From Marsupella aquatica (lineage: Eukaryota > Plantae > Marchantiophyta), in NCBI GenBank assembly GCA_973895155.1, contig OZ316896.1, positions 8,019,539-8,083,538 on the forward strand: 64,000 bases of DNA. Direction: 5' to 3'. The notes beneath the pieces were generated by a model. That model did no database searches, was not told the DNA's origin, and saw only the letters and a list, made by a program, of their open reading frames with translations. The position numbers and the translations under genes are program-made. This document shows, piece after piece, positions 22,038-48,194 of the stretch (positions within the stretch are counted from its first letter, which is position 1; the number at the start of each line of letters is the position of its first letter).

Positions 22038-22255
22038 GATTAGTATTTTATGTATAGACTTTTACTTAGCTTTGACTATTTGACTATCCCTTAGTCAAAG
22101 TTGACTTTTACTTTACTTAGTTTAGACTTAGGAAATGAAGAGGCATGTCTCTTCATTCTCCTTAGCCTGTGGGCGATCTCATGTACTTATTGTAATACCA
22201 GTCTCATTTTGAGACAGTGTGGATAGTTATTTGCATCTCCTCATCTTGGAGTTTT

Positions 22256-22676
22256 TGTTGGGTATTTACTCTTACGTCTAGGTTAGGTATGACGTGGTTG
22301 GTACAACAACGTGGGTTGGTACAACTACGTGGTTAGGTACAACTACGTGATTAGGTACAACTATGTGGTTAGGTACAACTACGTGATTAGGTACAACTAT
22401 GTGGTTAGGTACAACTAAGTTGCACACTATATCATAAGAGGCATGTGTGCTTGGAGAGGTAGAACCAAGGCTCATTGTTATGGAGCCACTTGAGAGATAG
22501 GGAGAGCTTACACTGTGGAGACTCGGTATAGCCGACGGGCTTAGAGTTCAATAAAGCTCTCTTGTGTGTTCCCGTGGACGTAGCCTCAAGGAGGTGAACC
22601 ACGTATCTCTTGTGTCGACTATTGTGCGTTGGATGGTTCATGGGCTTGCCGTTGCGTTCGTCGTCTATGCTCAACA
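22256..22676 (+). mobile_element. Solo LTR (421 bp, copia-like) with 5-bp TSD GTTTT
   Basis: TGTTG...CAACA termini; GTTTT at 22251-22255 and 22677-22681; AATAAA and CCCGTGGACGTAG...AACCACGT near the 3' end; internal 18-bp tandem repeat at 22294-22417. Confidence 0.9.
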
Positions 22677-25600
22677 GTTTTGTCCCTTGTACGTGTAATG
22701 CAATTTTGCAAGGAAGATTTGCATACCTTGGAATTTGATTACTTGTGCTAGGAGTCTACCCCTCCTTCGTATGGTAATGCATGTTGCAATTACCGTAAGA
22801 AGTAAAACCCATAAAAATACAATTTGTGGAATGTATTAGAAGATCCGTTGGTTGGTGCCTAATCCAAACTACAACATATGTTGTCCATTTCTGTATTTAC
22901 ATGAAGGACTTATCTTTGGAAGATAAGTATTACATGTAATCAAGAAATAGAAATCTATATGTTAAGAAGTAGCGACATTCTTAATTCATGGATTTGAAGT
23001 ACCATTGTGGTATACTGAATGTGCATTAGTTTTCCTTTGGAATTGCGCATCGCTGAAAAAGGAAACATGTTGCCGGCATTTTAATGACACACTACTATAC
23101 ACACAATCTGAAACTTATCTTGGGTTTTGTGAGCTTAGACACTTCTTAAACTTAGATTTATGATAGAAACCTAGAGAGCAGTTATAGCAAGGTTATGTTT
23201 GACTTATCAACGTCTCAAATAATGCCATAGCTCTTTCTTAAGACATGGTGACGGAGGGGCATCACCACCGAGACTGGAAACAGGAAAATAGGATTTCTGT
23301 TAACAGGAAAATAGGAACTGTTACCAGTAAATATATGAAGTTTTTGGCCCTTTTTGATGGAAAGGTAAGACTTGATCGGGTTCCTTGCAACAACAAAATT
23401 CACATGCTGTCTCTGTAACTGAATTACTTGTCCACCATATATGCGTAAACCATAGAGTGGGTCCCACCATACACAGGCTACTGAGGCGAGGCACACTCCA
23501 AAAATACCAATCTTAAAATATCATCAGAATCGGTAAGGTACTATGTAATAGCGCTAGGCGCTAACAAAAAAACCAAGGGGTTTGAGATGAGACCAAATGG
23601 ATTGAACGGTGTTCATAAATAAATAATTAAGTACACTTCAATGAAGTGTGACCTGGAAGGCGAAGATTTATATCCCACGAGAAGAACTCAAATATAGGAA
23701 AGTTCACAAACGGAGATTCCAATCGCAAAGATAAGTACTGGAAAGCATTCAGACCATAATCAAACAAGATTCACTCAGAAAGGGACAAACTGAAGCTAGC
23801 GCCCGGCGCTAGCCATATGTTATAACAAAATGTGTATTGAAAATGACTATCTGATTTGGTATCATTGAAAAGATGTGAAAAGTTCCAATGCGACAAATCA
23901 GTTTGGAGCCGTTGAACGTTACTAAATGTCTAGTCTATAAGTCCAGAGAATTCTGCCTAGCTAGAATGAGCCTCACCTCACCTATAGTCAAAATTGGCTG
24001 ACTAGCCAAAGTTGAATCCACCACATCTAGTTGTAGGACGTTGGTATACACCCAATAGAGATGCTTGCACGGCATGAAGGGCCTGCCATGAGAATGGCGA
24101 CAATAGAAGTCCTCACAAGAACAACATGGGAAAATGCAAATCTGTACCCAATAAGTGTTTGCTGTGCAAAGTCTCTCTTGGGTTTGGATCTGAAATTGTT
24201 TGCCCCAAGAGTTCCCGACAGAAACATCAAATTGTTGAACGAGGGTCATCAACTCCTTGTTTGCGGATTCAATTCTTTTGTTGTGCCCTTGCAAAAGATT
24301 TGAACGTGGGATTGTATTTTTACCATTCCTGCTCCGAAGGCGGATATTTGGCTCAAGGAGATTGATTTTCTTCGAGAAAAGGTTCACATTGATTCGCAAG
24401 TCAAAAGGAGATGGAGCAGCCTAACGTCCGGCCTTTGGATTGATAGCAATCCCTTGCTGAGTCAGGAATTGGACCTCAGCCTCGGAAAGATTAGTTCCTT
24501 TCAAAACGGGCAGGCTATGAGGAAATGGGGGAAGATTCACCACATTACGATGGGGCCGGCTCTTATAGCATGCACTATTGGGACAAAACCAAATCATCTT
24601 AGGGTGTGGTTCTCCCCTGAACACGCGATATCCTTTGACAACAATGCCAATACACCATCCGTTGATGGGTAACCAACCTTTTTAAGGCGATTGCGACAGT
24701 CATCTCGATCCAATTTTCCACCAAGAGATCCATTACACTGAGGCCCTGCACCATGTCTTGTCACTCTTCGTAGGTGCCACGCCCCTGGTCGCACATCAGT
24801 CTCCAACACAGCTGAGTCATGGACAACCTTTTGGAGGTTGGGAGGTGCACTTTGCAGGGCTGCAGACGACCTTGTTGACCTCCTCCAGGGCGGAGTACTC
24901 CAATGACTGCCTTCTTCAATTTCACTTTCTGACAGGTCCACAACGCCAATGTCATGGTGAACAGGACCCAATGCAACGGGGGAGAATGTAGTCTTGTTTA
25001 AGTTTTTCCTTTTCATGCCTCGAGTATTTGGTGATGTTACAAGAATAGTGTCATGTCGATGGGAGTCTTGTGCCGAGATGTTCCCAGAGGCTTGACCTTT
25101 CCTCTTCATAGACTTTGTGGTAACATCCCATTGAGAGGGCCACTCCTTTCCAGGTCGAATTCAGCCGCACCGGAAAGAAGCATATTGGAAGCATCTTGGA
25201 AAAGTTTTGAAGAACCTGCCTGGTCTGCCGAACGGAATGCCAATTCCCAAATTGTAGGTTCGGTTCCTCGGTTAAGACCTCTCTTATACGCCGTATACGC
25301 AGCAACTTGTGAAAGAGCCCTATTTTGATCCATCTCACATGCTTCAAATAGACCAGCCTTTTTCTTAGTTTGCCAAGACTTCATTATGGAATGTGCCACC
25401 TCTGAAGTAGTACAATTAGGAATCATAGCGCTTTCCTCTACGCTTTTGTTCTACATAAAACATTTGGAGCATATGACTTAGTCATTGCATTCAATAAAGA
25501 AACATTTGAACCAAATCATTTTGTAAGGTTTTCGGGTTTAATTAATGCCAGCGCCTGGCGCTACCACCATTCACACTAGAATATAGACAAATATGAGTAA

Positions 25601-28600
25601 CAAGTGGTTAATAAAACTAGCGCCGGACGCTAGTATAAAAAATTGGGCAAATATTGGAGTGGAACTAGGACACAAAAGTCAGTGGAAATAATGATAGCGC
25701 CAAGCGCTAGTATGACTTTGTTTGATTCCTTCTTTTAAAATGTTGATTTCGAGTGTTTACTTGTTTATGGATGTTGAAACTCACGAAACGAATGAAATTT
25801 CCCCATTGACGCCATCGGACCACCCACCACGCAAGCCAACCTTGGAGCATCCGAAGCTTTCCTAGAACACAATTCCCTGATCTCCACCACACGTCAATTT
25901 CCCTGGAAATTCTGTAGGCTCCAAGAAATATTGACGCGTTCCTTAAAGAGTCCCACATCTTCCGGTGCTCTTCTCATTTTTCTTCCAATACTCCTTTAAT
26001 TGAATGACGATGAAACGATTGATAGAAGTGAAATGCATCCGATCGCTCCTTTTCCGGGTTAGGATGTCCACCAAAAAACACATTCCAAACAACATTCCAT
26101 CCAGCTTGAGCATTGTCAGCCATGAATCCATGGATTACTACGTTGTCTAACCCATTTTCATGGCAAACCTCAATCATCAATTTCCAGGCTTTTTCTAACG
26201 ACTCAGAATCTTCAGCTTTCAACTCACATGTGAAAATTGTGCAAAGAGCATGGTAATTGTGATCATAAACGTGAGTGCTAAAAGTTATCCAATCCTTGGT
26301 CATTCTCCTCATCACATCAAAACTAACCCACACGCCTTCTAGTCGACCTCCAGGTTGCATTTGGCGCAACAAATCAACTCCAGATCCATGCCCTTTTACC
26401 ATCATTTTGAAAATATGTGGCCTCTCCTCCTTACAGCCTTGACCTGGGAGCATGTAACGTTGTAGAAAGGGAAAGTTTATGCATTTTTGCATTTCCACAA
26501 GAAACTCTAACTCACCTTTACCTTTTTGGTCTTGCCGAACACTCCAAAAAAGAGATGCAAACTTTTGAGGGGTCGAAACAACCATTAACGACTCCCAAAT
26601 TTCTCTTTCCTCCAATTCTCCGATGTCATTGTTGGACACACAGAGAGCCTTCCTTAAAGATCCAGTTATGGCATTCTTCATACCCGATGGTGTGGCACAC
26701 AGTGTAGCTTCATGTTGCTTCTTTATGAACTCATGAGCAATCTTTTCTGCACCTCGAGAAAAAACTTTACGACTGGGATGCGCATGAGTTCCAACATGCA
26801 CAGCAAGACGCGATATATGTTTACATGTATCCGCGTCGAGAAGTAATTGCGGGTACATATAAAAAAGCATTGTTGAACAAGCTTCAGTACAAAAGGGCAA
26901 TTGTTGGCAGTAGTGACAAACTACCCCACCCTCCTCAATAATCTTTCCCACGGTATGTGGCCCTGCAAGTTTGGGTGTCCCATCCCAAGATTTTGAATTT
27001 CTTCTTTTCTTCCGCAACAGATAATCACATTTCTGATTTCGACATTCGAGTGCACCGGTACACGTCACTTCACCAAATTCCCAAAAAAATTTAGGTTGGA
27101 CATTCGCAGAAGTTGGAAATATCCGTGTCCAGAAGTAGCAGTCTTTAGGCTGGTCCATGTCACGGAGCCTCAAACCTTTTGATAGCAGACCTTCTACGGG
27201 AGGCAATTCAAACACAACATTTCCATTGTATTTACTTGGTAGACAATTCACCTGCTCATGCCTGAAATCACTTGTTCAGATGAACCACGATAGTTCACTA
27301 TGGCCAGTTGATTTGAGAATGGCATCCATCGCACTTCGGCGGTACACAACACCCCCCGAAACATTTGGCTCGGAAGGAGAGTGACCTTCTATCTTGATAG
27401 AAGGCCCTGGATTGGCCGATGTCTGCAAATCTACGGCAACCTCCTCCTCATCACTCTCGGAAAGGTCAATGAATGGAACTGGATGTACTTCATTCAGAAC
27501 AGAATGTTGTCTGTCACACCATTGTAGGTAGTGTTAGAGTGTATCATACTATCTAGATCCATATGTTTGGTATGTGTGCTATATATGAGCCGATAAGGTT
27601 CCGTCAGGTTTGTGTGAGAGGGTACTTCTCACTTGTGAGGCATTGAAAGGTCATCTTTCAATGTTGAGCCTTGGAGAGAGAGGAGCTTGAGTGTGGCTAT
27701 GGTGGCTGTGAGCTCCGCTTGTGTAACGTGGATTCCTCGAGTAGTGCAAGGTGCGTTGGCTTGACATACGTGTGTGATCGGATCGGTGCGGGATCAAGGG
27801 GGTATTGTTGACCGGGATCGTTGTGCCGATTGTAGCGAGATTACATTGAAAGATCAGGCATCGGACTCTGCTGTTGTTGGACAGAGTTTCAATTTTCAGT
27901 TTGATTGTGTTCGACAATGGTTCGTGGTATCTCGGATCGTGCATCGTATTGCTTGATTGGATCGCCGGTATGTGGATCCAAGTTGAGATTGTGTGAGTTT
28001 CATTCTTGAGCGGATCTGGAGTGGAGGTTCGCCAGATCTGTAGCCTGTCTGTGGCTCTAAGCGTTTGTGTACCGATTGGCTGCAACTAGATCGAGTGTTG
28101 TGCTCTATGAATGTTCGATCTGCTGATTTGCGATCAGATAGTGTGTTGTTGTCGCCCGCATGTGAAGGGATCGATCCGACAAATGTGAAGGGATTGGATC
28201 TGTAGCCGAAGACCAATGCACTCCGCACATTGAACCTGCGTTTCTCAGAAGGGAATGACTATTGCATGTTGCCGAATCTGGCTCCAATGGTTTCACAAAG
28301 GGACGCGGCGCTAAGTGTAACCGAGACAGCTGTCGAGTAGGAGCGACAACCACATTTTTGTGAAGGAAATGACTGTTACATGTTGCTGATTTGGCGGTGC
28401 GGACTGTACGTGTTGGCGCTGATCCGAAGCGACCGTCATGCACCAATCCGGAAGCAGCCACCCGCCAGGAACATTGATGCATTTTGTGAAGGTGAAGTTT
28501 GAATGTCGCCAAATCTGAAAGTCGGTCTGGCGCAGCGTTTGAACAGACGTCGATGCTGTCACGACGGATTGCACGCTGCCACGCCGCTACTGTGCATTTT

Positions 28601-29387
28601 GCGAAGGGAAACAGAGGGCGTAGTGGGCGTGAAGGGCCCACTCTTTGGCTCATCTCGGCGCTTGGAGGCTTCGAGGTAACTCGTGGTTACTCGGGACGTG
28701 AGGGCGGAGCAGGCGGGCCAGCTTGCTGGTACATGAAGAGTAGTTTGCAAGCTGCTGATTTTGGAGCGGCCAATTTGGTGCATAAGTACAAGTGAGAGGT
28801 CACCCATCCCAAAGCTATTCCTTCCCCATGCGCTTAACTATGTGGTTCTTAAGTGCTCTTGTGTACACACACTCCTTTCCACTTTGATGTTAATGGAATG
28901 AGCACTTAGGCATTTTATACACATACTAGTTTGTTTAGATTGTCATTTTGGGGCAAATCATAAGCTCCCTTAAGGTTTTTGATGCTTCTGAATCCATCTA
29001 GATGCATGGATTGAACCAATTGAGCATGGATCCTTAACTACGACATTGAACATTGAGAGGCCTATTATGAAGGCCCCACATTGAACATTATAAACATTGT
29101 TTGATTGATGTATGATAACTATTGATGTGGAGAGTTATTGTGGATCTCTTCTTGTTGATTGGATTCTCTCCACATATGCGCCATGTTTATGCGCCATGTT
29201 AGTTTGGCGTGGGCGCTTGATTCTATAGGAGTGATCCGGGTTTGCAACCAGACATTCTAGTTGTGCTACATATTTCTCTCCTGGTGATGTTGGAGTGATG
29301 CCCAACACACCATGGTGAGTGCTTGTGTTGCTGACAGGGACAGATTGCCCTTAGGGTTAGCATATAGATTAGGTTAGGTTGGTCACC

Positions 29388-31753
29388 ATGGATTCTTCTA
29401 GTGCTGCTGGGTTATCCAAAGGACGACGGACCGGTTTCACTCGGAGTGGGGCATAGTTTCGGCCAGCGGCATTGGTAGCAGTCAGTAGTGCAACTTTAGA
29501 CAGTGATTCCGACGAGGACTCAGTCACCAGTTCTCCTCGTCATCAGGTGGTTGCACCTTTATTGTGGGATATGGAAGAGATGTACGGGGCTACAAAGGGC
29601 CCACGACGATACTCTGGTGCAGTTGGCACGATTGATCTGGATGACTTCATCCAGGAGTTTGATACGTGGTGCGATATGCAGACATTGCGTAACGCCACGT
29701 TGTTTACCCCTTTCATGGCATGGAAGGGATTATTTCAGCATTTGGAGGGGCCACCCATGGATGACTACCATGAGTTTCGGAAGGCTCATTTGGTTGAGAT
29801 TGAGGCATGGAGGCAGCATTGTTCGCCTAAGTACGTGTCCATCACCTATGGCACTAGTGCGGCTGCCCAACCCATTGCCACAGCCGCTGCTTCTTCTAGC
29901 AGCACTAGCCAGAGTGGCACACCATCCACCAGCAGCACTCCAGCAGCATCCACCACTACTCCTGCCGGTGTGATTGTGACAGGAACTGGAGTTGCACCAG
30001 CATTTAACCCTGTGGTGGAATTCTTTGAGGTACTGAAGCAGAACTATCAGGGTGTGAGAACTGATAAGTTGAAGGGTCTCTAGGAGTTCCAGCGCAAGAC
30101 TGGAGAGAGTCTACGTGAGGCATACACTTGTATGCGCAGATTGATCACTGTCACCAAGGGAGTGACAGAGGCTTAGGCAGTCCAGTTTTGGTATGCAATT
30201 CTAGACAGAGAATTGCAACGCAGAGTGAGAGATGTCACTTTGCTTAGGGATGCAGATCCCACATTAGCAGTTGTTTTTACCCTTTCTGAGTGCATTGAGC
30301 TCAATATGGTGAATGAGAAGGTGGTGACTTCCGGATTTGCCAAGGAAGCACCAAAAGCTGCATCTACATCCACACCACAGCCTACTGCACGAGAGTCTAC
30401 CAGCCAGAGATCTGTGCCTTCTTATGGTGGACAGCAGTCAAGATATTGGACCTGTGGTGGGGATCATGCACAGAGAGATTGTCCAGATCATAGAGGATCA
30501 GGGGGAGCATCAGCGCCTGATCAGTGATAGTGTGATCACTGTGGAGCTCCTGGACACACCAAGGATAGGTGTTTCTCACTCCACCCTAAGTTACGGAGGG
30601 GAGGATCCCGTACACATGATCAAGGAAGAGGAGGAGGAGGTAGAGGTGGTGGACGTGGTCGTGGCCTGCCACATGCAGGGAGACAGGGAGGTGATGCTGC
30701 CCCTACTGTAACCATAGATCCAAAGGATGCTAAGATTGCTCAATTGGAGCAATAGCTAACTGCCATGGCTAGTTCCCAGGTGAGACCTACTTCTGGTGAT
30801 GGGGCATCTACATCCTATGGACCTTCCACATCCCATGGTCCTTCCACATCTTATGGAGCTGATGGAGACCTTGCCACCATGGGATTCATGTGCGGCACTG
30901 CACATATTGATGCATTAGCAGCGTTGACACGTGGGGCGCCAAAGCTCTTGAGCCCCGAGGAGCAATAGTGGAGTTAGATCCACAAAGGGGGGATGCACGT
31001 TGGCAGACAAAGCTTCCTCAGTCTTTTACATTGTCAAAGACAATTCAGACTGCCTCTATGAATCCGGTTCGGACAAACCCTGATGTGGGTAAGTCGGCAA
31101 AATCAGGTAGTGATGCAGCAGGGATGACAGGTACCCTGCTAGGGGCGGCTACTGCCATGGTACACACCCCATTATTTTCAGCGACAGACATGCTGAACTT
31201 GGGAGTTGGTCCTGCAGAAGTGTTCAGATTGGCAGCTACACTCTGTGAGGACACTCCAGTGGTTGCTTCCCATGCAGAAGCAGCTTGCAGTGTTGAAGTA
31301 GTGAAGACCATGCCACCTACTGCTACTAGTGAGACATGGCATGCAGCAGCAGCGAGGTTGGTGGATTTACCAGCACGCCCTGCATTTGAGAGGACTAGGT
31401 TTAAACCTAGTGTTGTATCATTGGATAATCGGAGTGGTATCTTCCGATTAGTTGGGCCTTATGGAGTAGTATACTAGCCAGAGAGGGTGTTATTGGATAC
31501 TGGTGCTCAACCCTTGATGTTGGGAAAGTTTGCCATACGTGGATTGGGATTGCGTCCAGAGGATTTGGAGGATTGTCCCTTTCCCATTCAGACTTCATTG
31601 GGGGGACCTACACCTACACAGCACATTACCAGGAGACCTCTTGATTTGAGGATTCAAGAAGGTCATACCATAGATAGCTCACAGATACAAGCGCGAGCTA
31701 TTCTGACTAAGGCAGAGTCATATGATGTGTTGGTGGGATGTACAGTGCTCTAG
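29388..31753 (+). pseudogene. Gag (two zinc knuckles) and aspartic protease
   Basis: YSGAVGTIDLDDFIQEF; YWTCGGDHAQRDC and CDHCGAPGHTKDRC (about 30444-30572); VLLDTGAQPL at 31487; many in-frame stops. Confidence 0.85.
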
Positions 31754-32073
31754 CCCATGGAATTTATTCTTGATTTTTGGGAGGAATCAGTGTCATATAG
31801 ACCTGATTGACAGTCAAGAGATGCTCGTTGAGCAAATTGCCAATGAGATTTAGTGGACCTATGGGAGGCCCTAAATCCACACCATTGTCTTTGGCAGCAT
31901 TCAGTGGTCTAATTGTTGGACCTGATGATTTGATTGAGGGTAATGCGCATGCAGCAGATGTTCCACCATTGGAGGAGTCTCATGAGGAGCACATCATGCG
32001 AGGATTACCTGTTGGTAGTGTTGTGTCACCAGTGTGGGGCACTGCACATGCCTTGCCATAGGCAGCAGCACGA

Positions 32074-33072
32074 TTGGTACATGATGCATGGCGTCATGCT
32101 TTTACACCACAGTCAGGAGCAGAGCAGTATCTTGCAGATGGACCTGTGACTCTTTCACCATTGGATACCACTCCTATTGCTTGGCAATATCCACAAGAGG
32201 GTATTTGTTTGTTGGATCTTTTTGGTGGGATTAGCATTGGATTGGCTGCTATCACTGGATTGGCTGCACGGAGGGTCTCATTGCGACATGTGGCTATGTT
32301 GGTGGATAGATATCCACAGTTGCTGCCAATGGATGCTGTTCGTGGTTATCAGCATGCACTACCTGCTGATATTTCATTGCTGGGGGCGGATCATCTACAT
32401 CATGTTGGCCCCATTGATTTGGTGATTGCTGGTTGGCCATGTCAGGGCCAATCTAGAGCTGGCGTTGGGCATGGACTTCATGATCCACGCTCTGCATTGT
32501 TTTGGGAGATGTTACGGGTGCTGCGTCATCTCCAGCTACATCAGACACAGCCTCCAACATACATTTTGGAGAATGTGCCATTGTTAGGTGATGATCGTAG
32601 TCGGATTGTTGCCAGTGTTTACCAGGTGAGGTCTTGGATTGGACCTGCTGTGTTATTGGATGCTGCACGTGTGGGTTCTCGTGCACATCGTCCATGCTTG
32701 TGGTGGACTAATTTTGATCCCATGTGAGGTGCTGAAGCGCGCATTTGACAGTATTCCACGCTCACCAGCCTTAGTGGTGGATGATATTTTGGATCCAGAG
32801 CGTCGTGCACAGGGTGTGACCCACCTTGATCGTCCTCCATTGGCAATGGTCAATGCAGTTGGGCGCCCACGTTGTGCATTACCCACTCTTGTAAGCCACT
32901 CTACTTCATATGCATTCAGAGCAGGTGGCCCTGGACTTGTGTGGGACACAGCTCTCCAGCAGTTAGTGGAACCTACTGCTGATGAGAGAGAGCGTGCTAT
33001 GGGATTTTTGACTGGCACCACTGCTGTTGCCTCTGTGTCAGAGGGTTTGCGGCGCCAGGTTCTTGGTCAAGC
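32074..33072 (+). pseudogene. DNMT3-like C5-cytosine DNA methyltransferase domain within pol
   Basis: Motif I LLDLFGGISIG, IV IAGWPCQ, VI ILENV, VIII SRAHRPCLWWTN, IX-X ERERAMGF...RRQVLGQA; frameshift near 32720. Confidence 0.9.
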
Positions 33073-33166
33073 TGGACAGATTGTTGAGCAAGAAGGGATT
33101 GCTCAATCTACTGCTAAATAGCAATCATCGGCTATCTCTTCTACCCTACAAAGAGATATTAGGGAT

Positions 33167-34275
33167 TTGGTGGAGAGTTGGAAACCACAGCTTGGCCCTA
33201 AGTTGACAGGGGAGGAGAGACGTCGCATGCATCGATTCCTGAAGAGTTACTGGAATTGTTTTGCATTTAGCATGAAGGATTTGGGGACATTAAAGGGTCC
33301 TGGTATTCAGATTGAATTGGCTAGTGATGCGCCAATCTTTCGTAGGCCATACCATTACAGTGACATGGAGAGAGCTCTGATTCAAAGCAGAACTCAAGAT
33401 TTGTTGGAGGCTAGATTGGTGGAGATTTCATATGGGGAGTATGCATCTGCCACAGTGATGCCAGCCAAGAAGGATGTGCATGGCAATTACAGAGATAGGC
33501 GCATGTGTGGTGATTACAGACCCATTAATCGCCAGACAAAATCTGATAGATATGCCATGCCCACACCTGAGGAGATCTTTGATGCTGTGGGGTATGCAAA
33601 GGTTTTCAGTTCATTGGATCTGAGGGCAGGGTACCATCAGCTTCCAATTAGGCATGCTGACAGGTCCAAGACAGCATTCTGGGGGATTGATTCTTATGGC
33701 AAAAATTGTTTGTATCAGTGGTTATTCTTACCATTTGGGTTGAAGAATGCACCAACTGAGTTCCAGAGAGTCATGGATCGAATCCTTGCAGGTTTGGATT
33801 TTGTCAGATGTTATATTGATGATATTTTGGTCTATTCTTCTACTGTGGAAGAACATCAGTAGCACTTGCAGACTGTGTTAGAGAGATTGAGAGCACATGG
33901 GTTGAAGCTCCATCCTAGCAAGTGTAAGTTCTTCCAAGACCAGATTGAGTATTTGGGCCACACTATATACCCAGGGGAATTGGGTGTACAGCAGACTAAA
34001 GTGGAGGCCATTACACAGATTCCTTGTCCTATTGATGTGAGTAGAGTTCGTGCATTCTTGGGATTGGCGAGCTATTACAGGAGGTATGTTAAAGGATTTA
34101 GCCAGCTTGCTAAACCTTGACCATACTCACTAAGTTGGATCAGGAATGGATTTGGGGTGATGACCAGGAGCATGCCTTTAAGGAGTTGAAGCAAAGGTTG
34201 GCATCATCCCCTATTTTGAGAAGACCCATTTCAGCTACACACTGATTGGAGTGGAGTAGGACTTGGAGCAGTGTT
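33167..34275 (+). pseudogene. Gypsy reverse transcriptase and start of RNase H
   Basis: RMCGDYRPIN, FSSLDLRAGYHQ, LPFGLKNAP, YIDD, VRAFLGLASYYRRYV. Confidence 0.95.
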
Positions 34276-34649
34276 GGGGTACACAACATCATCAGTTATT
34301 AGTGGCTGATAACTGACATCAGTTGCTGATATCAGTTATCTCAAAAATTTTAGAATCTCAGTTGAGGAGTTGAGAAGGGCCTTCGAACTTCCGCTCATCT
34401 CAGCTGGGCAGCCGAGGTTGATTCAATCTCGGCTGACCTCGGCGAGATGGGCGTACGGACCAAAAATAAAATAAAAAATAAAAAAACCAAAAAAATTTCC
34501 CGAAAAAAAAACATTTTGAAAAAAAAAAATTGAAATTTTTTTCCCCATCTCAGCTGGCCTCGCCGAGATGGGGCGTACGGACCGAAAAAAAACGTGGAAA
34601 AAAAAAACCAAAAATTTTCCCAAAAAAAAATTTGAAACAAAAATTTTTG
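34276..34649. other. Foreign A-tract-rich fragment replacing most of the RNase H (probable truncated MITE-like insertion)
   Basis: Abrupt loss of pol similarity; starts GGGGTACACAAC; duplicated CATCTCAGCTGG...CGAGATGGGCGTACGGACC. Confidence 0.55.
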
Positions 34650-36050
34650 GATTCTATTGTTGGCAGTGTTGATGCCAAAGAACGTGACAGGGTTCTACAG
34701 AGAGCCAAGAGGTTTCGATGGGAGGGAAACCATCTTTTGAGAGTACTGCATGATGGTAGGGTGTTGGTGGTACCAAAACCATCACAACGAGTACATTTGG
34801 TGCAACATGCACACGAGGAGTTGGGGCACTTTGGTGTGAAGCGCACTTATAGCTTGCTACAGGCACAGTATTGGTGGCGTGGTATGCACACTCATGTCCA
34901 ACAGTTGATAGCTAAGTGTGTGGTATGTGATAGAGTGAGGGCATCATTTAATGCTCCCACTCCCCAGTTGCATCCGTTGCCGATCATGGGTTTGGGATAT
35001 CGTTGGAGTTTGGATTTTGCTGGTCCATTATCTCTCACCCAACGTCATAATCGGTATGTTTTGGTCATGGTGGAGCACTTCTCCAAGTGGATTGAGCTAG
35101 TGGCGTTGCCCGATAAAGCTAGTGGAGGAGTTGCTGCTACATTTTTGGATCGTGTACTTAGTCATTTTGGAGCACCAGCTGAGGTGTTGACTGATCAGGG
35201 AACTGAGTTCCGTGGAGAGTTTGAGATTTTGTGTGAACAAGCTCTGATTGATCATCGTACTACCTCTTGTGATCATCTTGAGGCAGATGGATTAGCTGAG
35301 AGAGTTGTGCAAACTGTGAAGAGAGGATTGCGTAAGTATGGCTTGCAGGTTGGTCATTTGGGAGATTGGGATCTCCAGCTATCTTGGTTAGCTATGGGCT
35401 ACCGTTTCAGTCGGCAAGCATCACTTGCATCCTTCTCACCTTACTTTTTGCTCTATGGTAGAGAGCCAGATTTGCCAGCAGCTATTCATCGTCATGCTGC
35501 ACCAGTTGTGAACTTGGATGATCCTGATGTTTGAGTCAAGGTGTGTTCAGAGAGAGCACGGGTATTTCAGAGAGTGATGCCCATGGCTTTTGACAACCTT
35601 GCCATTGCCCAACATTGTGATACTTTGAGGTATGCCACTATTCGTGGAGGAGGTTACCGTGCAAGCATTCGACGATTTCATCCTGGTGATTATGTTTATT
35701 TACAGCAGACAGCACCCACGACACTTGATGTGACCGCAGGCCAGACAATCTTACGTGTGCGTGAAGTGTTGCCTTCTGGTGTCCTGATGTTGGAGGGAAG
35801 CGATGGTATGGTTTGGAAGGATCATGTGCGCAACTGTGCACCATGTCACCTTCCCAACATTGATGGTACAGTAGATCCAAGCTTGGCACATGTTCGTGCT
35901 GGCTTGAAATGTATGTTGTGTGGATCTGCTCAGGGAGCAGCTACTATGTTGATTTGTGATAAGTGTTCTAGAGGATGGCACATGTCATGTTTGACACCAC
36001 CATTGCAGGTGATTCCTAGTGGATCATGGTTGTGTCCTCAGTGTCGGTGA
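34650..36050 (+). pseudogene. Integrase (HHCC, DDE) with C-terminal PHD finger
   Basis: HEELGH...CVVC, WSLDFAGP, LTDQGTEF, GLAERVV; PHD CMLC...ICDKC...WHMSC...WLCPQC; one stop at 35532-35534. Confidence 0.93.
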
Positions 36051-37771
36051 AGCCAACTAGTTATCATTTGTGTTCTCTTGGCAGATATGGATTGCAGGTA
36101 GGTGATCGATGGGGCTCACTTGCACCCGGCCTCCTGATCTTCACACCTAAAAAGGTGTATATCAACCTTGTAGAACTCATGGCTAGCTAGAGTTAGGGGA
36201 CCTTACTCCCAGCTAGGGGGATGATTGTGGGTTTTGGATATGTGTGGACATGAGTTCCACTTGTATTTCATTCTCTTGTGTTTGTGATGTGGCAGTGTGA
36301 CTATGTTTGGATGTATGTGACAAGCGATGTATGTTGTGTAGCGATGTGTATGCGCACGACAGCTGTCACACCATTCTAGGTAGTGTTAGAGTGTATCGTA
36401 CTATCTAGATCCATATGTTTGATATGTATGCTATGTGAGCCGATAAGGTTTCGTCAGGTTTGTGTGAGATGGTACTTCTCACTTGTGAGGCATTGAAAGG
36501 TCATCTTTCAATGTTGAGCCTTGGAGAGAGAGGAGCTTGAGTGTGGCTATGGTGGCTGTGAGCTCCGCTTGTGTAACGTGGATTCCTTGAGTAGTGCAAG
36601 GTGTGTTGGCTTGACATACGTGTGTGATCGGATTGGTGCGGGATTGAGGGGGTATTGTTGACCAGGATCGTTGTGCCGATTGTAGCGAGATTATTGTGGG
36701 TTTTGGACATGTGTGGACATGAGTTCCACTTGTATTCCATTCTCTTGTGTTTGTGATGTGGCAGTGTGACTATGTTTGGATGTATGTGACAAGCGATGTA
36801 TGTTGTGTTGCGATGTGTATGTGCACGACATGTCGGATATTGATAATATATCTCTTTCCAGCGTTGAGGTGCCAAAATCTGACTCCATCATCGATATCAA
36901 ACAGTGCGTCATCTGTCTCCTCTCCAGATGCATGGTCAGGTTTGATGGAATGGATGTCGTTGATGGCAACGTCAAATCTTCCACAAAGATAGTTCTCACT
37001 AACCTGTTTGTACGTGTCGGATGAACCTACAGGGATGCTTACAATCTCCCCAGTATCAGGACGAAGAAGCACGACTGAATTAGACATTGCGGGAGAATGA
37101 TATTAATTTGATAAACAAAGGAACTGAGAAAATAGGAGAACATTACTCCACTTAAGTTAAGTAAACTCATTCCGAACCTCAGAAGATTATGGTTTGTAAA
37201 CGACAAAACGAGTACTAGTCGTTAGATGCAGATACATAAATGTAGTTTGTTGTTTTGCCAACGACACTACTTACCGGTAACGTGTAAAAAATGTGATCAG
37301 ATAATTATTAGCGCCCGACGCTACCATAAAGAAGTACTCGGGTTTCAACTTAGAAACCAGACTGAATGTGCTAGCGCTAGGCGCTATCATTAGCAGACTG
37401 CCAAGTCAGAGCAAAATATTTTATTGATTTTGATGTAATTGCTGAAAAAATCAATAAACGTTTTATTTTGTTTTGGAATCGGTACTTCTTGGGAAAATAC
37501 AAGGGGTATACATAGCTAGCGTCCGATGCTGACATAATCTCCTCTATGTCATTGTCATGTATGAGAGAATTTTTAATGGTTTTTGATACTAGCGTCGGGC
37601 GCTAGTATCGATGGAGATGACTTTGGTTTGCCCAACGGTTACATCTAACGGTAACATGTATGAACGAATTCCTTACTTTATGTTGTTTTCTGTTGGATTG
37701 TTTAACGATACACTCCCGTTCATCGCTGCATCCACAAATGACTTGAAAATAGACGTTAATTCTACTCATCA

Positions 37772-40700
37772 CATAGTGACGGACCAAACGAGAAGTGTGG
37801 TCACACTTCTCATTTTGCCCATGGCGCAAAAAAATTCTAAGGCAAAAACGTATTGGATATGAAATTGGTATTCCCTCTAAAAACCCAAATTTTAGATTTT
37901 AAAAACGAGAAAAAACAATTTGAATTTGAAGTTGGGATACGGCGTATCCCATTTTGGATCCCACCGCGGTTTTCCAAAAAGAAAATACAACAAACGCAGT
38001 AAAAGGGGCAAGGTCATTTTACTCATCAAGAATATTCCTAGAAAATTCTTTTTAACGGTAACTTTTAACTGACTGCGATGAAACTACAGATAGAAATTGA
38101 CCACGGTCGGGGGCAAACTATAAATAGGAGAGCCATGATCAAATATTTCCGCTCATTTCTTCTCGCTCCCGCATCCTCTTGCTCCCCCGAGAATCCACAC
38201 TCTCTATGCAAATTCGTATCCCCCCGAATCAAACTAGAATCTGAACAAGTGAGAATGATATATCTTTTTGGAAATGATGAGGACGAATCCCAAATGGGAT
38301 ATGGCGTATCCCATTTGCGATTCAATCTTCAAAAATCCAGTTGGGTATCATAAACGTGAAAAAATGAGGTTGGATCAACCTCTAAATATGAAGCATTTAG
38401 GTGCGAAATGCAAGAAATTCAAGGTTGAATGCAAAATGGGATACCGCGTATCCCATTTCGGATTCAACCGATGAATCACACGCATTTTAGAATCAAAAGA
38501 TAGAAAATTCAATGTTGAATGCAAAGTGGGATACCAAGTATCCCATTTGGTATTCAACCTCTGAATATCTCACGTTAGGTCTCAAAAGCAGAGGTTGAAT
38601 GTGAAGTGGGATACTGGGTATCTCACAATAAACACAGTGATGAACCAAATGAGGAGTGGGAATGCACAAGCCATAAGTTTAGGAGTTGAATACGAAATGG
38701 GATACCACGTATCCTACTTTGGATTCAATCCAAGGATATGAGGCTTTTGGAATGCACAAGCCATAAATTGAGAAATTCAATCCAAAACTAGTGAATACCG
38801 GGTCATTCTTAGCTTTGAGCCCCTAAGCTTTCAATTTTTTTTTCAAAGTCAAATCCAAAGACCCTATCTAGCTGCCTGAGAATCTTGAAATGATCCAAAT
38901 TCATACTTAACATCTTCATCACTAGTTGTGACAAGAATTGATATGAAAACAATGAAAGATGGACTAAGATATGATCAGATTAAGTTGTGGGGTGAAATTA
39001 TAAAATTACAAAAACTTAAGTTTGTACCCTCTCACGCTTCGGAAGCCATATCTTTATCGGTATTTATCCAAATTCCTTATAATTGATACCGTTAGAAAGA
39101 AGAGCTTGAGACTTTTCAGCCTCTTTACTCGGCGCTGCAAAAATAGAAAAGAAAAAATTTGAGATCAGGCAAAATCTCGCAAAAAAATCAGATTGCATTT
39201 GTAAAAAAATCACAAATGATCAAAATTTCAAGAGGAATACCAAGTGGGATACCAAGTATCCCATGTAGTATTCAAACATGTTATTTCACAAATCTAGACG
39301 GAAAAAATCATAAAACCTTGTATGAATACCAGGTGAACATGTTGTTTTATCCCATTTGGTATAAGAATATGTTATTTTACAAATCAAGAACTTTACAAAG
39401 AGTGATAAGAATTTTACAAAGACCAAATGAAATCCAATTTGGTATTCAAATGTGAAAATGGATGAGTGACTTGTGACCGAGGGCCAATCCGGGACTTTGA
39501 ATCTGAGGTGGGATCCACAAACCCACTTGGTATTTGCCTCCATTTTTAGGTAGGTCTGTTGATTGGTTCTACATATTTTGAAAGAGTAAAAAATGGATGT
39601 GATTGGGGTTGTGCTGAGCAAGGAAAAATCCAAAATTGTTTTGGAGTTGAATCAACAAATGGGACTCATGGATCCGTGTCGGTATGGATCCATGTCGGTA
39701 TGGATCTGTGTCGGTATTCAAACCTCAATATTGAGGTGCAAGGTGTGGCAAGGGCAAATTTTGGCGGGTGAATACCAAATGGGATCCGTGGATCCGTGTT
39801 GGTATTCAAACCTCAATATCAAGGTGCAAGGTGCGACAAGGGCAAATTTTGGCAGGCGAATACCAAATGGGATATTTTTGGACTTGTTCAGAAAACTCAT
39901 CCTTGGTTTTGAGTGGGTTATTTTTGGACTTGTTCAGAAAAATGGGATACGTGGATCCCTATTGGCATTCCCTGATTGGTCCGTACGAGGGTTTTTTATA
40001 GTGAGAGTCTATCTTTTCAAGGAATGCTGAAATCTAAATTGTAGATTTTTTAGGAAGTCGTCGTGGATCCCAGTTGGTCTTCAACTAGAATATCAAGGTA
40101 TGTGGTGTGAAAAGTTCAAACTGTAGAGGTTGAATACTAGATGGGATCCATGGATCCCATCTGGTATTCATCCTCCTGTTTTCCCGATGAGTTTTTGGAC
40201 TTGCAAAAACAAATGGGATCCATGGATCTCAGTTGGTATTCATGTCGAAAGATCTCCTGATGCAAAGTTGCAGGTGGAAAACATTGAGGTTGAATACGAG
40301 AGTGGATACTTGGATCCTGTCTCGTATTCATCATGCGTTATGGGCTAAAATATTTCCGAAGATGTCGTCGGGTTAACTTAACTAACTGTATGGGTTGACT
40401 GTAGTCTGCGGTCAGTTTTTCGCAGTTTTTGGTTTTACTGCAGTTAAAAATTCAAATATTTTAAACCCGAGGTTAAGTGGAAGCGTCAAGAGAATGATTT
40501 GGTGCGGTTTTTGTTCACGTTCAACGGTTGAATCCGAAATGGGATACGCCGTATCCCATTTTCAGTTTGCCATTTTGATTGCAAAAATGAAATCTTGTGT
40601 TTTCCTAGTTTTGTTTGACGCTCGGATTTAGCTTTTAGAAGGATCACGTGAAAAACATTGTTTTTCTAGGTTTTGGAATTTGCTCTTTTTTTAGATGACG

Positions 40701-40904
40701 TGTCTCGGAATTTTGGAATGTAACAATTCTTTGTTTTAGTGTCGACAGTATCTCGATTTGAAATCCGATGTTGGATGCAATTTTGGATTCATCCTCAAAA
40801 TAGCGTTTTTGATCTTAATTTTGGTGATTTTTTGCCATTTTTTGCAAAATCAAAAACACACTTCTCGTTTGGTGGTCATACTTCTCGTTTGGTCCGTCAC
40901 TGTG
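37772..40904. mobile_element. Non-coding 3.1-kb TIR element with CA(C/T)AGTG termini and many long internal palindromes
   Basis: CATAGTGACGGACCAAACGAGAAGT at 37772 is the inverse of ACTTCTCGTTTGGTCCGTCACTGTG ending at 40904; internal degenerate TIR at 38633; no clean TSD. Confidence 0.8.
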
Positions 40905-41063
40905 TTTCATTTCAAATAGTCCCTGCCACCTGTCTTTGTTTGGATTGGTCAGTGAGATTCTTTCAATCCTTCTCGTTCTCCGTCACATGATGTCAACAGC
41001 ACTATGATGGAAAAGTTTTAAAGGTTTTATGTAGTTCTTTGTATATGGTAATTTGTTCGGAGC

Positions 41064-42602
41064 GTGAGGGTAGAGACTGGCTCTGTGTCGTACAGAGACC
41101 TTCATGTATTGACATGCTCCACAATGCAACCTTCAAGCGCCCCAAGCTCTCCAAGAGGGTATACCACAGTTCCAAAGGAAGATCACGGTCATTGCGAGTC
41201 TACACAATCTTCGTTCTCTGGGGCATTTTACTCGCATCAAGTTACAAGGTCAAGCAAAGCAATCACTTCCTTCAACGCAACACTACCACTCCAGAAGTCC
41301 AGACGGGTCCAAATGGACACGGATAGCATGACCGATTACGTGCTGGGAGAGGGCAACGAGGTTGGATTAGGGATGGATGAAGTCATCTCGCGACACATAA
41401 TGTCATGTGGAAAAGATTTCCGGGGAAACGAGAAGGAATCGCCCAGGATTCCGCTTTGTCGGTTGATCCACATGGAGGTAGTGCGGACGCTTCAGAAGGA
41501 GAGTGTGTCAATTGAGAAATTGAAAGACTCGTTCTGAAGTAGTGGGTACAATCCAAGGATTGGAATGCGGTTTTTTGTGCAACCGACCAATTCTGATGGT
41601 GTGGAGCAAATATGCACTGAGGAGATCAGGGAGACTTGGGATGCTATTTGGGTTGCTGAGAACGAGAAATTTAAGTTAGAATGCGCGACAGATCCAACTT
41701 TTACGATCTTGAAAGACAAAATGTTCTCAGTCTTTGACGGGAATCACCAACTTTACTCGTGGACTATGGTCACAAAGGAAAATCCAGACAATGTCAAGTA
41801 TCATCCCAGAGTTCTTTGCACCATTTTCAAGGGTGATAAAGCTTCACAAATTCAGATTGAGGCGGCTATGCACACAGTCAACCAGTAAGTAATTCGGCCC
41901 AAACTTGTAATTAAACATTTCTGCAATCCATTGTTGTTAAATAAATACTAAAGAGAGTATTTGTTTTTATGCTAGCGCCTGACGCTACTAATTTCAAACA
42001 TGGCCTATTGCAGGTTAGGGCAGGCCGTTGTTGAACCGTCGTGGATCTTTGACGCAGACAGAATCTGAAGGATTCTCTCTCACAATCTAGAGTACTATAA
42101 GTCAATAATTGACAGCGCCAATTATGCAAAGTTTGAGTATATAAAACAGAAGACTCGAAAACATTCTTGGTACACACGGAAAATGCCTCTAGAAGCTCTT
42201 GTTTATATTTTGTGCGAAAACAAAATCAAAGCTTACACTAACCAGTTCAAGATGGACATGGCATTGGCAGCAAGTCAAGGCAATCCTTGGTCGACTGATG
42301 AGGTCGCAAAGTGGCAGTCACTCATGTTGAAAGAGGCCACCAAAGACTGGTCTACGAAAACATCCAAAATCACTCCTCTTCTTAGTCCTGAGTTTGAAGA
42401 TTTTCTAGGTACTTGTGCAGAGATGTACGTATTGACGGAGAAGAACAAGCGAGAGAAAAAACCCGATTCGGTTGTTTGTACTATGGACCGTGCTAGACTA
42501 TTCACAGCAGTTTCTGCTCTTGATCCAAAATTGAGATGCACTTTGCTTGTTGCTCACTGTACTCCAGAGTTGAGAAAACAATTCTTCCACCCTGCCAGTG
42601 TG
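41064..42602 (+). pseudogene. ParB/Srx-like domain gene of element B, truncated by the LTR at 42603
   Basis: IPLCRLIHMEVVRTLQ...IEKLKDSF*SSGY...MFSVFDGNHQLYSW (ParB-like DGNHR box); intron 41885-42013. Confidence 0.65.
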
Positions 42603-45600
42603 TGTGGTGCGTCCCATGGCTCCCTAAACCCAAGAAACCCCCCAGCTCAAGCCGATTCCCGCAGGTTTCGCGCTTGGCGAGGCCGTTTCTGCGGCTTAGC
42701 GGCATGGGACGCTGCTAACCTTCTACTACTACTATTAACATTTTACACACATATACTGGACAGATCCTTCATCGGGTCATGAGATACGTAGCCGGCCTAA
42801 TCTAGACCTTCCCTCGTCTTCCCCTCCGTCTTGTTAGGTATGTTTGGATTCCGCCGCCGGAATGATCCCCAATAGGCTTGGTTAAGCCGCTAAGACCTCT
42901 CTCAGCTTGACACATCCAACTCTCACTCCCCTGCTTACTTTCCTTCCTTCTAGTTGATGTGGGCACTCTTCACACAAGTTAATGCGACACACAAATAGCA
43001 AAATGACTCCTTCTGACTGAGTCATACCATGCACTTGCCATACAAACAGTACATCTCATACACAAGCTCTGCGAACTAAGCCGTGAGGCCAACTCTATTC
43101 AGCTCTTAGGCATGAGGAAACATGAATATACACAAGGGTCACTGTATGACTAACCGAGAGCTTCTCTTACTACTTGATCCCAGCCCGGCTGGTGCAAACT
43201 AAAAACTTGCTAAAGAAGAGGCCCTTAGCTCCCCGCTGCCCAGGTACTTATCCTGGTAGTGGATCCGCCTAATTCTTTGCAGCGTAAGCCTAATCTACCT
43301 AACAGTAATCTACTTGCCCAGATCTACCTATGTACAGCAAGGCAGGAGCACAAGTGTTGCTCCTACCAGTGGAACCGCAATCCCACTAAGCTAAGTGTCA
43401 GGGCCGCCCCTGGTCCTGATCCTAATCCTAAACTTGGAGATCAGCGCCTGCCCTGCCCACTCACGCCTCCTCCCTCCACGTCCGCCCTTCCTAAAAGGAA
43501 CGGCGCCCTTGCACCGTCACGACACCGGTGGTGGATCCTCAATGGACGCCCCCAACGCTTCCTCCTCAGCCACTGCCGTAGGTTCGTTCTTTGACAGATT
43601 ACCTGCCCTTGACTGAGTCAACTCTCCATCGGCCTGACTGGGTCCACAATCGGCGTCGGCATCGGCTCGGGAATCGGTTACGGCCTCAGCCTTGGCAACG
43701 GTCTCCCCGGCCTGCTCAAGAGGCGGATCTGGGATACCAGCCTCATTAATGAGTAGTTCGGCTTGGGCCGCACCATCCCCACCTTTGATGATAGCGGGAT
43801 CTATTGCCGTATTCATGCCGGAGGATGGTGCTGGGTCTACCTCCTTGGTCACCACTGCCTGTGGAGTCGGATTACTCCTTGACCCTGAAGGTTTCCGCTT
43901 CTTCTTCTTTTCTGGTTCGGCAGCTGGTCCCTTCCCCTTCCCACTTACTTCCGGCACTGGTGCAGGTGGCGCGGCTTTTTCTTCGGCCAGTACCACTCCT
44001 GGTAACCTGGTTGCCCCAATTGGAGTTGGGCCTGATGAAGACAAGCACTTAAATACTGCGGCTTGTTTCTTCAGCCGCTCCGTTTGGTTGTCGGCCCGCC
44101 GCTGGAGGTTCTCCATCTTCCTCGTGATTTCCTCCAACTCCTCTTGGGTCTCATCCAGGTCCTTGCACGCCTCCTCTAGTTCCTTCTGGGCTTCCTCCCG
44201 TTCTTTCTTCAAGGTAGCCCTCTCCTCCCGGGTTGCTCTTAGCTCCTTGTGTCGAGCTCTGCAATGATGACAGACTCCATCTGGTTCATCTTGGCGTAAG
44301 TCTGATCGAGCATCTCGTCCTTCTCCCTTAGGTCGGCCTTGAAGCTGGCCGTCAGGGACGCAAGCTCCTGCTGCAGCGCCATAATCCCTTGATAGGATTT
44401 TCCTAACTCGGCCTCCTTCTGCTCAAGGGCTCCGCGGATTTTCTCGAGCTCCCCCTTCAACGCCCATTCCTTTCTTTGGGTCTCCGCCATGGCCCGGCTG
44501 TTGGCTGTTATGTGGGCCTCCTCTGCATTCCTCAGCTCTCGCTTCCACTTCTCCCTCTCTTTGATTGTATCGGCCAACTCTCCCTGCGTCTGAGTCAGTT
44601 TATCCTTGATATTCTGATTATCAGCCTGCCCGGTGTCCAACTGCCCCTTCATGATGTTCAGCTCATGCCGTTTAATCCGCAGTTCATCTTGGGCTTTCTT
44701 GGCCGCCCTTAGATCTTCAATCTCGGCTTCCATCCTCCTAAGCCGCCGAATGACCTCGTCCTTCTTGCTTCTCTCTAAAGCCACCGCTTCTTCTAATTGG
44801 CGCTTCTCCAACTGCTCCCTATGGAAAAAGGGTCCTACCTCCAACTCCTCTCCAAAGATGCCGAGCGCAAGTTCCCCACGCATCTCACCATACTCCATGG
44901 CTCTATTCTTAGCGTAGGTGGAGTAAGTAGAAGTGATTGGCATCGCCCATCACGGCCTCTGCTCCCAAGCCGTCTTGCGGATATCTTCAATCGTGGCTAG
45001 AGGTTTGCTTCCTTTTTCGGCTAGCCGCCTGATGTCCTCCGGCCAATCTCCTCCTGGTAAATCCTTTTCCCTAGCCAGGGCTGCCTCCTCTTCCTGCCTG
45101 ATTTGCTCCTGAAATTCCTGCGCCGTCTGTTTTATGCCGTCAAAGCTCGGGGGAGCAACATCTGGTGGGGGAGACTCAGGGCTACTCTGCTGGTTGGGGT
45201 CCCCTCGTACTACCCTTGGAAGTGTGGGGACAAACCGGCCATAGGTCCTTACTCCTGGAACGTGATGGTCCGACCCATAGCCGGAGTTATCATGGCTGAA
45301 GTCCTCCACTGCCTCCTGCTCTGCTGCTCGGCTGGCTTCTTTGGTGCCGCCGACCTCATTCTTTTTGCCGGGGTGGCTTCATCGTTGACGGCTTCCTTCC
45401 TCTTCATCTCTGCTGCCGTGGAGGTTTCTCCTAGCACCGTTGCCTGGGTCCACCTTTCCGTGCTACCCTTCAATTCCCAGTGTATGTTGTTGTAGTTTTT
45501 GATGGCCTCTCGGATGCTGACGATGCTGTCTTTGCAAAACAGAAGATCGTCGAGCTGATTGGAAGTAGGAGTCCACAAGAACTCGTCCTTGATGAGTTCG

Positions 45601-48193: not shown

Positions 48194-48194
48194 C

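Follow-up and report, generated by a model that had tools for sequence, protein, structure and literature searches.

Palindromes confined to the non-coding parts of a transposase-like and ParB-like two-gene unit in the liverwort Marsupella aquatica: candidate docking sites for a protein of the element itself

ParB-like proteins that are encoded by transposons and come with palindromes of their own have been proposed only since 2025, in algal transposons. For red algae, Petroll et al. (bioRxiv 10.1101/2025.02.11.637652) describe inverted-repeat arrays beside the gene for PAG3, a transposon-encoded protein which combines a ParB-like N-terminus with a 2-oxoglutarate (2OG) oxygenase; the inverted repeats adjoin the gene in tandem. 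In Ectocarpus, a ParB-like plus DNA-methylase gene lies opposite the Sola1 transposase gene (Sola1-1_Ec32; PMC12477816), and ParB-helix-turn-helix (HTH) regions fused to adenine methylases are reported from chlorophytes and chytrids (Iyer et al. 2016). Two plasmid proteins of bacteria belong to the same context: VirB, a ParB-family protein of the Shigella plasmid, counteracts silencing and loads onto the plasmid at an inverted repeat (PMC10770331), and KorB of plasmid RK2 acts from palindromic OB sites (PMC11790492). For VANDAL21 and its protein VANC21 in Arabidopsis, a short element-specific motif in non-coding regions is described, with changed motifs in related elements (Hosaka et al. 2017, PMC5735166); this VANC motif is 9 base pairs (bp) long and non-palindromic, and its arrays keep to one orientation and have spread by tandem repetition (PMC5735166). 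Here, we analyze a stretch of 64,000 nucleotides (nt) of the liverwort Marsupella aquatica (contig OZ316896.1, positions 8,019,539 to 8,083,538; hereafter the window), in which a transposase-like gene on the minus strand and a ParB-like gene on the plus strand are arranged head-to-head and share scattered copies of a palindrome of 15 bp.

An earlier note, made from the letters of the window alone, had listed ten copies of a palindrome TAGCGCC-N-GGCGCTA and seen in them the main evidence that both genes belong to one element. When the window was searched again, all ten start coordinates were correct. The pattern itself holds for nine copies with at most one mismatch, but 23797 is the only perfect one (and the sole match in the window to the exact expression TAGCGCC-N(0-12)-GGCGCTA), and the copy at 37517 (TAGCGTCCGATGCTG) has decayed to four mismatches. 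Searching for TAGCGCCNGGCGCTA with mismatches allowed gives nine sites, each with 0-1 mismatch, compared to 0.09 expected from 100 dinucleotide shuffles, in which the largest count was 2. At three mismatches the number is still nine (0.82 expected). With the two strands taken together, the window has 12 occurrences of the half-site TAGCGCC (2.62 expected, largest count in the shuffles 8). Ten of these occurrences lie inside motif copies, and since just two half-sites stray, at 28307 in a nested Gypsy retrotransposon and at 60782, there is no full site outside the two-gene unit; none was found in the remaining approximately 57 kb of the window, even allowing three mismatches. The earlier observation that no palindrome lies in the nested Gypsy or in a second nested insertion with terminal inverted repeats (TIRs) was thereby borne out, the one lone half-site in the Gypsy notwithstanding. 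The copies are as follows (strand not assigned):

23549 to 23563: palindrome copy 1, TAGCGCTAGGCGCTA, 1 mismatch, 3′ flank of the transposase-like gene
23797 to 23811: palindrome copy 2, TAGCGCCCGGCGCTA, perfect, approx. 125 nt beyond the transposase-like stop codon
25549, 25618, 25695: palindrome copies 3 to 5, transposase-like intron 1
37309, 37372, 37517 (decayed), 37590: palindrome copies 6 to 9, left part of the divergent intergenic region
41973 to 41987: palindrome copy 10, intron of the ParB-like gene

The transposase-like gene thus has two copies in its 3′ flank and three in intron 1; four more lie between the genes, and the last is in the ParB-like intron. All ten fall into the non-coding part, which makes up about 33% of the unit (0.326^10 = 1.4e-5; the share of 0.326 rests on estimated exon limits). 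Based on these results, we conclude that the motif is real and confined to the non-coding parts of the two-gene unit. Inside the clusters, neighboring palindromes are 63-248 nt apart. Their flanks are unrelated between the ten copies, except for a weak (G/A)C...G(C/T) extension, which argues for isolated sites rather than pieces of a longer repeat. All 12 mismatches in the ten copies are transitions, and ten of them are C>T or G>A, as would fit the decay of once perfect, CpG-bearing sites. The two-gene copy in the window is dead (in-frame stops and a frameshift in the transposase-like gene, stops in the ParB-like gene) and so reveals no more than the arrangement of the element, and the palindromes fit decayed, formerly perfect sites within it. 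The unit is composed of the following parts:

23938 to 24420, minus strand: open reading frame (ORF) that contains the last transposase-like exon, SWIM-like CxC-x15-CxH; stop codon 23935-23937
24831 to 25450, minus strand: transposase-like exon 2, TTSEVAH (probable catalytic E); matched by tblastx to 1396-1980 of the related metagenome locus L001; lower limit approximate
25451 to 25776, minus strand: transposase-like intron 1, donor GTGAGT, acceptor ...tgtag; the homologous intron of L001 likewise holds three palindromes
25777 to 27507, minus strand: transposase-like exon 1, second part, with a zinc-rich region and a DDE-type core with D...D and D(2)H
36831 to 37087, minus strand: transposase-like exon 1, first part, 85 codons from the ATG at 37087-37085, ubiquitin-like N-terminal domain
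37088 to 37765, strand not assigned: divergent intergenic region, left part, with palindrome copies 6 to 9
40907 to 41123, strand not assigned: divergent intergenic region, right part
41124 to 41885, plus strand: ParB-like exon 1, ParB/Srx N-terminal domain; start approximate
41886 to 42013, plus strand: ParB-like intron, 128 nt, decayed donor CAG/TAAGT (slash marks the splice site), acceptor ttgcag
42014 to 42599, plus strand: ParB-like exon 2, helical middle region, in-frame stop 42066-42068

The labels under which the earlier note had placed the palindromes are supported by this structure. The transposase intron has a GTGAGT donor, an AG acceptor and homology to the L001 protein on both sides; the ParB intron is stop-rich and coincides with a gap in the alignment to Riccia proteins, which are spliced or intronless; the label divergent promoter refers to the interval that separates the start codons of the two genes (approx. 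0.9 kb plus the nested TIR element). The reading frame of transposase-like exon 1 stays continuous across the Gypsy, where 27507 joins 36831, and is broken by stops at 27276-27278 and 25974-25976; exon 2 carries a frameshift near 25130. In ParB-like exon 1, the conserved motif GNHR is mutated to GNHQ and an in-frame stop is present at 41535-41537.

The comparison with VANC sites, as drawn in the earlier note, stands as a functional analogy: like VANDAL21, the locus pairs a probably Mutator-like element with an accessory protein and has the motif both ahead of the transposase gene and within introns. It does not extend to the form of the sites. Unlike the VANC motif, which we compare by its description, the 15-bp palindromes are single, with unrelated flanks and no dense tandem array in the same orientation, and the accessory protein and candidate binder has a predicted ParB/Srx fold.

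Nine loci were detected when metagenome contigs were scanned for matches to the transposase profile. L001, 2078 nt long, encodes a transposase 63% identical to that of the window and carries the palindromes TAGTGCCGGCGCTA, TAGCGCTGGCGCTA and TAGCGCCGGCGCTA at 1111, 1195 and 1285, a pattern with 0 occurrences in 2000 shuffles of L001. They lie between exon 1 (ending at approx. 1096) and exon 2 (starting at 1396), i.e., in the intron homologous to intron 1 of the window, so that a relative shows identical half-sites at the corresponding place. Apart from the palindromes, the two introns are not alignable. The retention of three palindromes in an otherwise unalignable intron is the strongest evidence for selection on the motif. 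The L001 half-sites are identical to those of the window and abut (spacer 0 versus 1), which suggests that the geometry of the palindrome may change between lineages; in addition, the L001 palindrome is longer, at 24 bp (ATTGCTAGCGCCGGCGCTAGCAAT). Of the three L001 copies, the middle one is located inside a near-perfect inverted repeat of approx. 60 nt (1165-1230; CGCCTCTCGTTTCACTTTATTGCTAGCGCT / GGCGCTAGCAATAAAGTGAAACGAGAGGCG), suggesting that such sites might grow by palindrome-centered duplication.

Linkage of the two genes was found again at L003 and L004, which are one sequence from two metagenomes (99.9% identical). Here, a transposase relative on the plus strand (37% identical) and a decayed ParB-like relative on the minus strand (E-value 2.6e-9) are arranged head-to-head, approx. 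3.8 kb apart. The earlier note had made its claim of a single element depend on whether the genes are linked in other genomic copies; the claim withstands this check, since they are linked elsewhere, in the same orientation to each other. The only repeated palindrome-like word of this sequence, TGGCAAAATATT, occurs in three places, one of them a full palindrome; this number is too small to define a motif. The other six metagenome loci are short and do not contain the palindrome, and no relatives were found among viral contigs with either protein profile.

The ParB-like family comprises 232 representatives, with full-length members in Riccia sorocarpa and Adiantum. An AlphaFold2 (AF2) model based on 60 relatives has a predicted local distance difference test score (pLDDT) of >90 for residues 111-270, taken in 10-residue blocks. 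Its best VIA-align match is the N-domain of Myxococcus xanthus ParB (7o0n_A; Z 8.5, root-mean-square deviation (rmsd) 2.3 Å over 91 residues). Out of 186 chains compared, 43 reached a Z of at least 5; the entries listed at this level are ParB, Noc, KorB, PadC, pNOB8-type ParB, sulfiredoxin, serine kinase and SbnI, and the sole listed entry from outside the superfamily is the uncharacterized Pyrococcus protein 1vk1. KorB and its complexes with cytidine triphosphate (CTP) are matched at Z 7.6. The top Foldseek rows show the same families (prob up to 1.00, E-values 0.04-0.3). The name “ParB-like”, given in the earlier note, is therefore justified at the level of the fold: as modeled, the second gene encodes a ParB/Srx N-terminal fold. 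Among the 60 relatives, conservation of the residues G233 N234 H235 R236 is 90% or higher, and we take this GNHR to correspond to the arginine-bearing loop motif of ParB (GxxR / DGxHR). At its C-terminus, the Riccia relative P0172 (1207 amino acids) matches N6_N4_Mtase with an E-value of 5e-5 and 23.7 bits; together with the Riccia relatives P0170 and P0173 the range is 5e-5 to 9e-6 and 23.7-26.2 bits, all below the cut-off of 26.7. The named Atlas clusters nearest to P0172 are phage proteins with ParB_N plus N6_N4_Mtase (score 0.83), which we treat as a lead only. In the window, homology to the relatives stops at 42599, and a very high-copy TGTGTG... repeat, visible as a jump in depth, begins at 42600. 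A protein search with 42069-42599 found no near-length relative of exon 2, hence the gene could not be extended past 42599.

In several respects the locus resembles the algal systems. As with PAG3 and in Ectocarpus, a gene with a ParB-like N-terminus lies beside a transposase gene (on the opposite strand in Ectocarpus, head-to-head here), inverted repeats of the element are the proposed binding sites, and relatives have, or in our case may have (a sub-threshold match), a DNA-modifying domain. The known carriers are Plavaka/EnSpm, Zisupton and Mutator-type transposons for PAG3 in red algae and Sola1-1_Ec32 for the ParB-methylase in Ectocarpus. Element-borne inverted repeats of the PAG3 kind are present, ten in number, with one in the ParB-like intron and four upstream of the gene, but they are dispersed: unlike in the description of PAG3, on which alone our comparison draws, the palindromes are single and scattered over promoter, introns and 3′ flank instead of forming tandem arrays by the gene. 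Further differences are the plant lineage, with liverwort and fern as closest named relatives, a protein family without a Pfam match and a window copy in which no effector domain was found. With KorB, VirB and BisD (ICEclc), the locus has in common a ParB-fold protein of a mobile element. Those proteins load at palindromic or inverted-repeat sites and control transcription over long range by silencing, anti-silencing or activation at a distance; they are CTP-dependent sliding clamps of prokaryotes whose HTH is known, whereas in our case the fold of the N-domain, with the motif GNHR, is the part modeled. In the literature on ParB with Mutator-like transposons and on ParB with liverwort transposable elements, we found no description of this family.

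The transposase-like family has 16 relatives, one of them named, from the liverwort Calypogeia fissa. Using Pfam and NCBIfam, no match was obtained for the transposase-like ORFs, the ParB-like ORFs and most long relatives. Specifically, neither the window ORF nor six full-length transposase relatives had any Pfam match, whether to a Mutator-like element (MULE) domain or to another; PF10551 was absent even at lenient thresholds, and PF04434 (SWIM) gave no match to the transposase-like protein at E-values up to 10. PDB sequence searches with single proteins or profiles gave nothing useful. The Atlas clusters nearest to the transposase carry PF10551 MULE and SWIM domains (score 0.89, again a lead only). 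In the AF2 model (pLDDT 68.7), the catalytic part comes closest in structure to ISCth4, a transposase of the IS256 family (Foldseek prob 0.80), which VIA-align superimposes with Z 7.2 over 167 aligned residues but with a poor rmsd of 11.7. The Mutator superfamily is characterized by TIRs and a target site duplication (TSD) of 9-11 bp; a SWIM-type zinc finger is common but not universal. Similarities to MuDR/MULE and IS256 are the ISCth4 match, the D...D and D(2)H motifs and the C-terminal CxC-x15-CxH, and the D...D spacing, D(2)H and TTSE presumably follow the Mutator pattern. In contrast to MuDR/MULE, there is no PF10551 or SWIM match, no TIRs or TSD were found, and the N-terminal domain is ubiquitin-like. 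The gene is likely Mutator-like, as the earlier note had called it, judging by the structural and cluster leads to IS256/MULE, but Pfam does not recognize it. Its N-terminus is modeled as a ubiquitin/PB1-like beta-grasp domain (Z 8.2 to DWNN; Z 5.4-6.3 to the PB1 entries 6tgn, 4mjs and 1wj6), which may drive oligomerization. A weak match to the GCM domain was also obtained (Foldseek prob 0.69). The ubiquitin-like start, PB1- or DWNN-like, is common to 36831-37087 (minus strand) and the relatives P0003-P0008 and is an unusual module for a DDE transposase.

What could the palindromes be for? The likeliest reading, to which we give about an even chance, is that a dimer of the element's own ParB-like protein docks at them and would then regulate or mark the non-coding DNA of its element. 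The protein would bind as a dimer through a DNA-binding part beyond the modeled region. From the palindromes it might protect promoter, introns and 3′ flank against silencing, like VANC and VirB, or it might deliver a DNA modification; the latter route is considered because of the sub-threshold N6/N4-methylase-like C-terminus in the full-length liverwort relatives. The 24-bp palindrome of L001, long for the site of a host factor, argues for such a private binder. A far more speculative extension, which we hold to be unlikely as a whole, is that Mutator-like transposons of the land-plant lineage carry a eukaryotic counterpart of VirB and KorB that loads at private palindromes, spreads, shields or re-marks the element (e.g., by N6-adenine or N4-cytosine methylation) against host silencing by 5-methylcytosine (5mC) and co-evolves with its sites, as the spacer of 0 versus 1 suggests. 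Several results weigh against binding by the ParB-like protein. The linked locus L003/L004 is without any TAGCGCC site, and L001, being only 2078 nt long, shows the motif accompanying the transposase gene, not the ParB gene. The Pfam domain PF02195 (ParB_N) is matched by neither P0018 nor P0019 at E-values up to 10, and PDB sequence searches with single sequences or profiles give no ParB match. Structurally, the Z of 8.5 barely exceeds the stated VIA-align background of 7-8, the match covers the ParB N-terminal domain only (chain residues approx. 38-128) and not the HTH that reads parS, and DGNHR seems to have more in common with DGxHR, the nuclease/Srx type, than with the GERR type of CTP clamps. 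Finally, with the gene cut at 42599, the methylase part is found nowhere in the window.

In the main rival reading, the transposase itself binds the palindromes. Its zinc-rich N-terminal region, which is GCM/WRKY-like, would make the contact and its ubiquitin/PB1-like domain would assist oligomerization, and the sites would then serve transposition (as internal or subterminal sites) or self-activation of transcription. We regard this as possible, though not probable. It is in line with the presence of the motif beside the transposase gene alone in L001, with the weak GCM match and with the N-terminal similarity to DWNN and the PB1 filament (Z 8.2 and 6.3), and a comparable case is the AtMu1 transposase, which is reported to activate cognate copies sequence-specifically (2026 preprint, 10.64898/2026.08.24.746577). 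However, the palindromes are located in introns and in the central promoter instead of being gathered at recognizable termini, and the comparison of the flanks found no motif-bearing TIRs. Moreover, perfect palindromes of 15-24 bp are typical of dimeric HTH proteins more than of WRKY/GCM-type zinc fingers.

Two further explanations do without a binder encoded by the element. If the palindromes were sites of a host transcription factor, i.e., a GC-rich enhancer or promoter element used for expression, the four copies in the divergent promoter region would be well placed, and the GGCGC core of the half-site may resemble E2F-type sites. Nevertheless, we consider a host factor quite unlikely: the other approximately 57 kb of the window hold no full site, palindromes also occupy introns and the 3′ flank, and the change of the spacer from 1 to 0 together with the 24-bp extension in L001 fits a co-evolving private binder better. 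Very improbable, in our view, is the absence of any protein-binding role, with the palindromes being structural (hairpin or cruciform) or the remains of a small repeat unit. One L001 copy does lie in the near-perfect inverted repeat of approx. 60 nt, and the window copy is dead; yet the flanks of the ten copies are unrelated, a 7+1+7 palindrome is unable to form a stable hairpin loop, and three copies were kept in an intron diverged beyond alignment. That intron, with three palindromes kept and the half-site spacing altered, provides an unusually clean comparative signal. The locus extends the proposed pairing of ParB-like proteins and palindromes to a likely Mutator-like family with named relatives in liverworts and ferns, and it hints that plant transposons evolved VANC-type self-recognition modules on more than one occasion, in this case with the fold of a bacterial DNA-partition protein.

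The unit is interrupted by two insertions, neither of which contains a palindrome:

27508 to 36830, plus strand: nested Gypsy long terminal repeat (LTR) retrotransposon in transposase-like exon 1, with DNA methyltransferase (DNMT), reverse transcriptase (RT), integrase and PHD finger
37766 to 40906, strand not assigned: nested TIR element, 3141 bp, termini CACAKAGTGACGGACCAAACGAGAAGT, TSD TCA/TCAT (3-4 bp)

The repeat family is present at high depth in four public sequencing runs from two organisms, whose contigs over the repeats are a few hundred bases long each. Three contigs (two from X1, one from X2) join 27507 directly to 36831 and skip the Gypsy, and five (three from X1, two from X3) join 37765 to 40907 and skip the TIR element. 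Therefore, both inserted secondarily, and other copies have an unbroken intergenic region. Uninterrupted copies, which the earlier note had proposed to recover, thus exist for each insertion point, but no contig spans both genes. Termini and a TSD of the two-gene element itself were found neither by a search for inverted similarity of the flanks nor by read depth. Between 18156-25000 and 40594-49280, no inverted similarity besides the palindrome motif, and thus no TIRs, was detected. No left limit could be called by read depth in the region from 18 to 24 kb, as it is repetitive throughout at similar depth, and the right end is masked by the very high-copy repeat from approx. 42600 onward.

The nested TIR element looks CACTA-like; it is non-autonomous and has repeated subterminal words (CAAACGAGAAGT). 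In the nested Gypsy, a C-5 cytosine DNA methylase (ORF 32062-32724, PF00145, E-value 4.7e-12) is encoded upstream of the RT and a PHD finger (35535-36047, E-value 1e-11) after the integrase; this retrotransposon has very high depth in the runs. A Gypsy element with a captured Dnmt3 has been described for the charophyte Klebsormidium, in a paper whose main text leaves a PHD finger unmentioned (PMC5890265). A stretch of 148 nt is duplicated in the window copy (36214-36361 and 36683-36830), flanking the 3′ LTR homology at 36363-36693 on both sides. It is not part of the 5′ LTR (27511-27843), and the joint puts the end of the insertion at 36830.

A few other features of the window were recorded. 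The 433-amino-acid ORF at 53399-54697 had been a candidate for a second transposase copy but was rejected as unrelated. The region 53399-55478 (plus strand) looks like a second DNA-transposon-like gene, with DUF7869 (PF25273, E-value 3e-43), followed at 56494-58807 (plus strand) by an RT of the long interspersed nuclear element (LINE) type with zf-RVT. In an ORF at 59838-60311 (minus strand), weak S-adenosylmethionine (SAM)-methyltransferase / N6_N4_Mtase signals were seen (E-value 3e-4, below the cut-off), in a region unmatched by the profiles of the ParB-like family. The whole nested region is bracketed by a 3-kb direct repeat (15120-18155 and 49281-52290; 91.6% identity, 34 kb apart), both copies of which begin with TGTGACGCC; these could represent either the LTR pair of one giant element or a repeat that is simply present twice. 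Finally, an insert of about 427 bp at 22250-22675 has extremely high depth in all four runs and is skipped by five contigs (22249 joined to 22676), and is therefore probably a short interspersed nuclear element (SINE) or similar to a miniature inverted-repeat transposable element (MITE).

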